Source: Escherichia coli (GTDB lineage: Bacteria > Pseudomonadota > Gammaproteobacteria > Enterobacterales > Enterobacteriaceae). From it: a DNA stretch of 64,000 nt. Position numbers and translations under genes: made by a program. Below are positions 14,020 to 14,115 of this stretch, one piece after another. Each line of letters starts with the position of its first letter. Position 1 is the first letter of the stretch. The stretch lies in assembly GCF_022846255.1 (NCBI RefSeq), contig NZ_AP025682.1; one strand, 5' to 3'. Below the pieces are notes generated by a model, which saw only the letters and a list, made by a program, of their open reading frames with translations, did no database searches and was not told the origin of the DNA.

Positions 14020-14115
14020 TTTCCCCGTAAAGCGGCAACTTTATTAAGTTGCCGCTTTTTTGTGCACAGAAAAGCAGAGTGTGAAACAGTAAGTTCACAC
14101 TCTGCTTGAATTCAT

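Follow-up and report, generated by a model that had tools for sequence, protein, structure and literature searches.

The convergent genes pflA and ycaD in the Escherichia coli DNA analysed here (a stretch of 64 kb, referred to as the window) are separated by a 96-bp spacer which very probably marks an old deletion. This deletion, now fixed in one lineage, would have taken out the accessory genes that stood between two convergent terminators. The genes concerned are ycaK, ycaN and ycaM, which in K-12 fill 3,228 bp at a place where the window has 4 bp, in agreement with the original prediction that all three are absent between pflA and ycaD.

The pflA-ycaD spacer and its predicted terminators

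The genes around the spacer were identified by an NCBIfam equivalog search and by tblastn with the K-12 proteins (Table 1). The NF008356 alignment starts at residue 10 of the 255-aa pflA ORF, and the K-12 PflA query matched positions 13279-14016 with 100% identity; YcaD showed 99.2% identity to K-12 YcaD. The stop codon of pflA (TAA) lies at 14017-14019 and that of ycaD at 14116-14118 (TTA on the plus strand, TAA on the minus strand), so that the spacer is exactly 96 bp long. No homologues of YcaM, YcaN or YcaK were found by tblastn anywhere in the 64-kb window.

Table 1. Coordinates of the features discussed in the text. Positions are those of the window unless a locus number (L) is given.
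Feature	Position	Strand	Remarks
focA and pflB (10805-13087)		+	upstream of pflA
pflA (pyruvate formate-lyase 1 activating enzyme)	13279-14019	+	246 aa; NCBIfam NF008356, 524 bits
Spacer between the pflA and ycaD stop codons	14020-14115	none	96 bp, convergent intergenic
pflA intrinsic terminator (predicted)	14030-14061	+	12-bp stem AAGCGGCAACTT/AAGTTGCCGCTT, loop TATT, T6 at 14056-14061
Deletion junction	14062-14065		GTGC, 4 nt without a match in either flank of K-12, where ycaK-ycaN-ycaM take up 3,228 bp
ycaD intrinsic terminator (predicted)	14062-14107	-	14-bp stem AAGCAGAGTGTGAA/TTCACACTCTGCTT at 14072-14107, then UUUUCUGUG
ycaD (MFS transporter)	14116-15264	-	382 aa; NCBIfam NF002962, 731 bits, full length
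ycaC	15578-16204	+	past ycaD; followed by dmsCBA on the minus strand
CRISPR arrays	35283-35433, 35584-35792, 50950-51277		repeat GTTCACTGCCGTACAGGCAGCTTAGAAA
tRNA-Ser(GGA)	36496-36583		
cas-region ORFs	41893-50244	-	198, 333, 307, 435, 1077 and 329 aa
ycaN 3' remnants	L003 5003-5113; L006 7709-7865; L005 10790-10892; L008 10816-10897; L009 10791-10884		

The description of pflA and ycaD as converging on a 96-bp spacer with two hairpins was borne out both by reading the sequence and by folding. The entire spacer folded at -42.5 kcal/mol, compared with -17.8 +/- 3.05 for shuffled sequences (z = -8.1; none of 200 shuffles equalled it). Folded alone, the pflA hairpin (14030-14057) reached -20.1 kcal/mol (z = -4.45) and the ycaD hairpin (14072-14107) -22.1 kcal/mol (z = -4.19). 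Each is a G+C-rich stem-loop followed by a U-tract, as in an intrinsic terminator; the tract is U6 for pflA and the weaker UUUUCUGUG for ycaD. The pair is therefore built like other back-to-back intrinsic (Rho-independent) terminators, which likewise have one G+C-rich hairpin and one U-tract for each convergent gene; here the hairpins stand 14 nt apart. A simple terminator scan called the second hairpin only and reported it on the plus strand. The hairpin of the pflA terminator is also found 3' of pflA in K-12 and O157:H7, and the hairpin downstream of ycaD is kept in K-12, E. albertii and other Escherichia. The sequence following the ycaD stem is TTTTTTGTTTCTT in K-12 and TTTTTTGTG in ECO20. 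In the window, the ycaD U-tract was shortened by the deletion and is interrupted by a SNP at 14069, whereas the tract of K-12 reads UUUUUUGUUUCUU. Position 14069 is G in the window and in CFT073 and A in ECO20 and K-12, giving UUUUCUGUG instead of UUUUUUGUG.

Since both hairpins survive, each gene keeps its own predicted terminator, and the convergent transcripts should still stop before colliding. Selection against read-through between ycaD and the strongly expressed pfl operon, which converge here, may explain why both survived. An Rfam search over 13000-16000 with permissive filters recognised no sRNA or riboswitch in the spacer and returned two chance-level matches (E = 0.63 and 0.73); the best match in the spacer (E = 0.73 and 18.9 bits, where the gathering score is 72) was not credible. 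No promoter was found by a scan of 13900-14250.

Comparison with the K-12 locus

In the annotated K-12 genome HMS174, the order of genes is pflB, pflA, ycaK (minus strand), ycaN (plus), ycaM (minus), ycaD (minus), ycaC and dmsCBA. The expected K-12 order ycaD-ycaM-ycaN-ycaK-pflA matches this annotation; pflA and ycaD are not adjacent in K-12, as the 3,228 bp with the three genes intervene. The flanking genes and the two terminator hairpins are otherwise the same as in the window, and the flanks are 98-98.7% identical. Alignment by blastn placed position 14061 of the window at position 3772 of the K-12 locus (L001) and position 14066 at 7001. The left breakpoint coincides with the end of the T-tract of the pflA terminator, and the right one lies inside the U-tract of the ycaD terminator, where the minus strand of K-12 reads TTTTTTGT/TTCTTC (the slash marks the breakpoint). 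The GTGC filler between the breakpoints is common to the window, ECO20 and Z1323HEC0423, and CFT073 is 100% identical to the window over a 136-bp junction query (14000-14135). An origin of the filler in nearby sequence was considered and rejected: only 6-nt matches were seen (TGCACA in the ycaM promoter region and GCACAG in the spacer of the ycaM-only arrangement described below), and these are compatible with chance.

A search for direct repeats was aimed at the signature of transposition, of site-specific insertion or of repeat-mediated deletion. None were seen at the two breakpoints of the K-12 segment, where the only match was an 11-nt inverted one formed by the two terminator T/A-tracts, and no integrase, transposase or tRNA bounds the segment in the K-12 annotation. 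The segment does not have the features of a mobile element or genomic island, the sole hint of one being its lower G+C content of 45.4%. Because flanking repeats are missing and a 4-nt filler is present, the breakpoints were likely joined through this filler by illegitimate (non-homologous) recombination.

Three states of the locus among complete E. coli genomes

The 5,426 complete RefSeq genomes of E. coli were surveyed for the K-12 segment and for the junction. DNA of the K-12 segment was present in 4,377 of them and found nowhere in the other 1,049. The full K-12 arrangement (state 1, at least 80% of the K-12 segment) was carried by about 3,316 genomes. About 1,061 genomes had only the ycaM half (positions 1526-3228 of the query) together with a short 3' remnant of ycaN (state 2). 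The contiguous pflA-ycaD junction of the window (state 3) was found in 1,046 genomes with the 136-bp query, for which at least 80% query coverage was required and the genomes listed had 97.8-100% identity, and in 1,051 with a 2.1-kb query. The three states together cover all genomes, and state 3 makes up about 19% of them.

State 3 is visible in the annotation of CFT073, 536, E2348/69 and EC958 (ST131), which are four separate B2 lineages. Gene order, annotated gap (96-97 bp), breakpoints and GTGC filler of these strains are all as in the window. On the basis of these four reference strains, of their phylogroup and of the clustering of alleles, the lineage carrying the junction is apparently B2-wide; the Clermont markers of B2 (chuA, yjaA, TspE4.C2 and arpA) are located outside the window. 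State 2 occurs in O157:H7 strain F8952, in SMS-3-5 (phylogroup F) and in 2009C-3133, as well as in E. albertii and other Escherichia. It has the same flanks and also lacks ycaK and a functional ycaN, but unlike the window it has kept ycaM along with 83-157 bp of ycaN. The left breakpoint of state 2 lies 14 bp farther from pflA, and next to it come about 40 bp that did not align. In state-2 strains, the RefSeq annotation shows a 111-bp 'hypothetical protein, missing N-terminus' beside ycaM.

Some further differences were seen around the locus. In IAI39 and SMS-3-5, this part of the chromosome has undergone rearrangement with respect to K-12. E2348/69 carries pseudogenes of dmsA (internal stop) and ycaC (frameshift) beside the junction (L090 5473-7917 and 9446-9989), and EC958 has a P2-like prophage with an integrase immediately upstream of dmsA (L091 1-28445).

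Direction of the change within Escherichia

The original prediction had left it open whether genes were deleted in this lineage or inserted in K-12. The question was addressed by an outgroup scan with YcaD as the query and one genome per GTDB species, the neighbouring genes being mapped by tblastn. In every non-B2 Escherichia representative recovered (E. albertii, Escherichia sp. MOD1-EC7003, Escherichia sp. E1V33, 'E. coli' SCPM-O-B-8794 and E69), ycaM directly follows ycaD, and pflA comes next in all loci except E69, which ends too early. The gene has the same place, with ycaD on one side and pflA on the other, in Salmonella enterica subspecies arizonae and diarizonae, in many Citrobacter (C. 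freundii group), in Kluyvera and in Yokenella, and the ycaD-ycaM spacer is recognisably conserved across Escherichia, Salmonella and Citrobacter. The presence of ycaM at the same site in outgroups implies that it is older than E. coli and that its absence from the window is a loss.

All state-2 Escherichia loci contain 3' fragments of ycaN, 83-157 bp long and 74-97% identical to K-12 (97% in O157:H7, 74-89% in other species), which correspond to residues 250-301, 267-302, 270-296 and 269-289 of YcaN. Residues 1-290 of K-12 YcaN align to an intact LysR homologue that stands beside a ycaK homologue in another enterobacterium (L056; 68% and 60% identity). The fragments fall within the portion of YcaN that shares homology with this independent full-length protein, and were therefore regarded as true remnants of ycaN. 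Because ycaM is found in outgroups and true ycaN remnants in state 2, the K-12 arrangement is the most complete of the three and the ancestral one within the genus, both other states being deletions. The question was thus settled in favour of a deletion in the lineage of the window. The remnants vary in length and divergence between Escherichia lineages, and repeated or very old loss of ycaK-ycaN with ycaM kept is suggested.

The following course of events can be proposed. The ancestor of Escherichia would have had ycaK, ycaN and ycaM between pflA and ycaD, as K-12 has today. Several lineages would then have lost ycaK and most of ycaN, and the lineage of the window and of the B2 strains CFT073, 536, EC958 and E2348/69 would have lost the remainder up to the two terminators. 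State 3 was most likely derived from state 2 when about 1.75 kb more was deleted, and not by the loss of 3.2 kb at once, since state 2 is found in SMS-3-5, of phylogroup F, and in 2009C-3133, which heads the best 24-kb matches to the window.

It is very unlikely that the window instead keeps an ancestral empty site into which ycaM-ycaN-ycaK were inserted on the way to K-12. Such an insertion would fit the low G+C content of the K-12 segment (45.4%; 42.8% in ycaK) and the direct convergence of ycaD and pflA in 21 of 72 species-level loci from other Enterobacteriaceae, but it would not account for ycaM at the same site in every non-B2 Escherichia examined, E. albertii included, and in Salmonella and Citrobacter, nor for the ycaM gene and ycaN remnant carried by phylogroups E and F. 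Moreover, the spacer of the window consists of two Escherichia-type terminators, unlike the empty sites of other genera (that of C. koseri is a different, GC-rich palindromic sequence), and the integrase, tRNA and direct repeats that could mark an insertion are absent around the K-12 segment.

Linked allele and background of the strain

The deletion is linked to a particular allele of the neighbouring ycaD-ycaC region. Identity to the window in this region was 99.35-99.86% for junction carriers and 97.85-98.2% for ycaM carriers; CFT073, 536, ECO20 and Z1323HEC0423 showed 99.58-99.86%, and K-12, O157:H7 and 2009C-3133 showed 97.85-97.99%. The 2.1-kb query gave 1,009 records with at least 99% identity, and the ycaD parts of the split genomes listed had 96.7-97.7%. 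Since breakpoints, filler and linked allele are shared, a single, old and vertically inherited event is pointed to by the sequence comparisons. The flanks of the window are 98.7% (pflB-pflA) and 97.9% (ycaD-ycaC) identical to K-12, the latter value comparing with 99.6-99.9% for CFT073 and 536; the strain is therefore not of K-12 background, as had been expected from the junction.

The relationship to CFT073 changes along the window. From 1 to 16 kb, identity was mostly 99.3-100%, with dips to 98.3% in the 6-7 kb bin and 98.7% in the 11-12 kb bin. From about 17 to 34 kb (dmsCBA, serS ... ftsK) it was 95.5-98%; counted per kb, the difference from CFT073 in this part is 2-4.5%. The ycaM-carrying strain 2009C-3133 was closer to the window at 17-20 kb (99.1-99.6%). 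Relative to CFT073 the window is accordingly a mosaic, and it does not represent a typical CFT073-like genome, being only partly CFT073-like. The best 24-kb matches were headed by 2009C-3133, alongside O78:H4 poultry strains, probably ST117 of phylogroup G. Because no complete RefSeq E. coli genome exceeded 98.7% identity over 5000-29000 and the window is mosaic relative to CFT073, either the lineage of the strain is unrepresented among complete genomes or the region is recombinant. At 25000-27000, which is part of ftsK, identity to both CFT073 and 2009C-3133 was 93-96% and short secondary self-matches occurred; this probably reflects the repeat-rich FtsK linker, which varies in length. Annotated ftsK lengths also vary between strains.

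The mosaic structure indicates that recombination in this region is real, and empty sites do exist in other genera, so import of the empty allele by homologous recombination from a species or clade lacking the genes has to be weighed as well. Its chances are even smaller than those of an insertion in K-12, because the sequence on either side of the junction shows 99+% identity to that of other E. coli carriers and about 98% to that of K-12, the closest outgroups reach only 84.9-96.4% in ycaD-ycaC and all carry ycaM, and the hairpins on either side are the E. coli versions. An assembly artefact, in which genes that the strain does possess were collapsed or dropped during assembly, is practically negligible given the same junction in 1,046 independently completed genomes that have no ycaM-region DNA elsewhere.

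The pflA-ycaD gap in other Enterobacteriaceae

Loss within Escherichia, the preferred reading, leaves room for a different history at the level of the family. Among the 72 species-level loci of other Enterobacteriaceae in which both ycaD and pflA were visible, 21 showed direct convergence of the two genes across a gap of 36-185 bp (as in C. koseri, Enterobacter soli, Trabulsiella, Siccibacter, Franconibacter, Silvania and Buttiauxella), 23 had ycaM and 28 had other cargo. The cargo included a PTS EIIC-GAT/transketolase/RpiR operon in Raoultella, Klebsiella and some Citrobacter, a gene of the choloylglycine hydrolase family (CBAH) in Pseudocitrobacter, an unrelated LysR gene, and in C. youngae an ORF of 1,075 aa with a repetitive C-terminal half. 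Two further cargo ORFs, of 264 aa and 173 aa (Gly/Asn-rich), had no Pfam match. The G+C content of the K-12 segment compares with 50-52% in pflA, pflB and ycaD. Given this low G+C content and the 21 empty loci, an empty gap is not intrinsically a derived state, and ycaM, and later ycaN-ycaK, were probably once acquired into a variable terminator gap. Such an acquisition leaves the polarity within Escherichia, that of a deletion, unchanged. It is doubtful that the gap between the two terminators is a recurrent hot spot of gain and loss in Enterobacteriaceae and that the loss of ycaM has phenotypic consequences in extraintestinal pathogenic E. coli.

Lost proteins and significance

By Pfam, YcaM is a permease of the APC family (AA_permease_2), YcaN a LysR regulator and YcaK an NAD(P)H oxidoreductase of flavodoxin-like fold. 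The strain lacks all three proteins, the genes of which are all non-essential. In K-12, deletion of ycaN altered the expression of ycaC, ycaD and focA (PMC9068703), and a ycaM knockout was reported to be less sensitive to colistin (bioRxiv 10.1101/2025.07.07.662571). Results obtained in K-12 on YcaM, YcaN and YcaK are not transferable to CFT073 or ST131, which naturally lack the genes. The locus can further serve as a marker with three states, scored by PCR or in silico, that separates the junction lineage including B2 (empty), the type of O157:H7, SMS-3-5 and 2009C-3133 (ycaM only) and the K-12 type (all three genes). Otherwise it is an ordinary presence/absence polymorphism, and a new kind of element or mechanism is not involved. 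A literature search on ycaM, ycaN and ycaK found only functional papers on K-12 and no paper on the deletion; the deletion is nevertheless already known in the sense that it is plainly visible in the public annotation of long-available reference strains.

Other features of the window

A type I-F CRISPR-Cas locus was noticed in the infA/tRNA-Ser/clpA interval (35283-35792 and 41893-51277). By size and order, the ORFs of the cas region look like cas6f-csy3-csy2-csy1-cas3f-cas1, and matching genomes annotate cas3f and csy1 under the cas-region match. Coverage of positions 34500-59000 by the best complete E. coli genomes is only 76-78%, at 93-94% identity, so that the locus is a divergent form of the I-F system known from the clpA-infA interval. 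Between tRNA-Ser(GGA) and the cas genes lie four ORFs of 344, 830, 226 and 182 aa on the minus strand (36705-41513); they may represent defence cargo or an integrated element that uses tRNA-Ser as its site.
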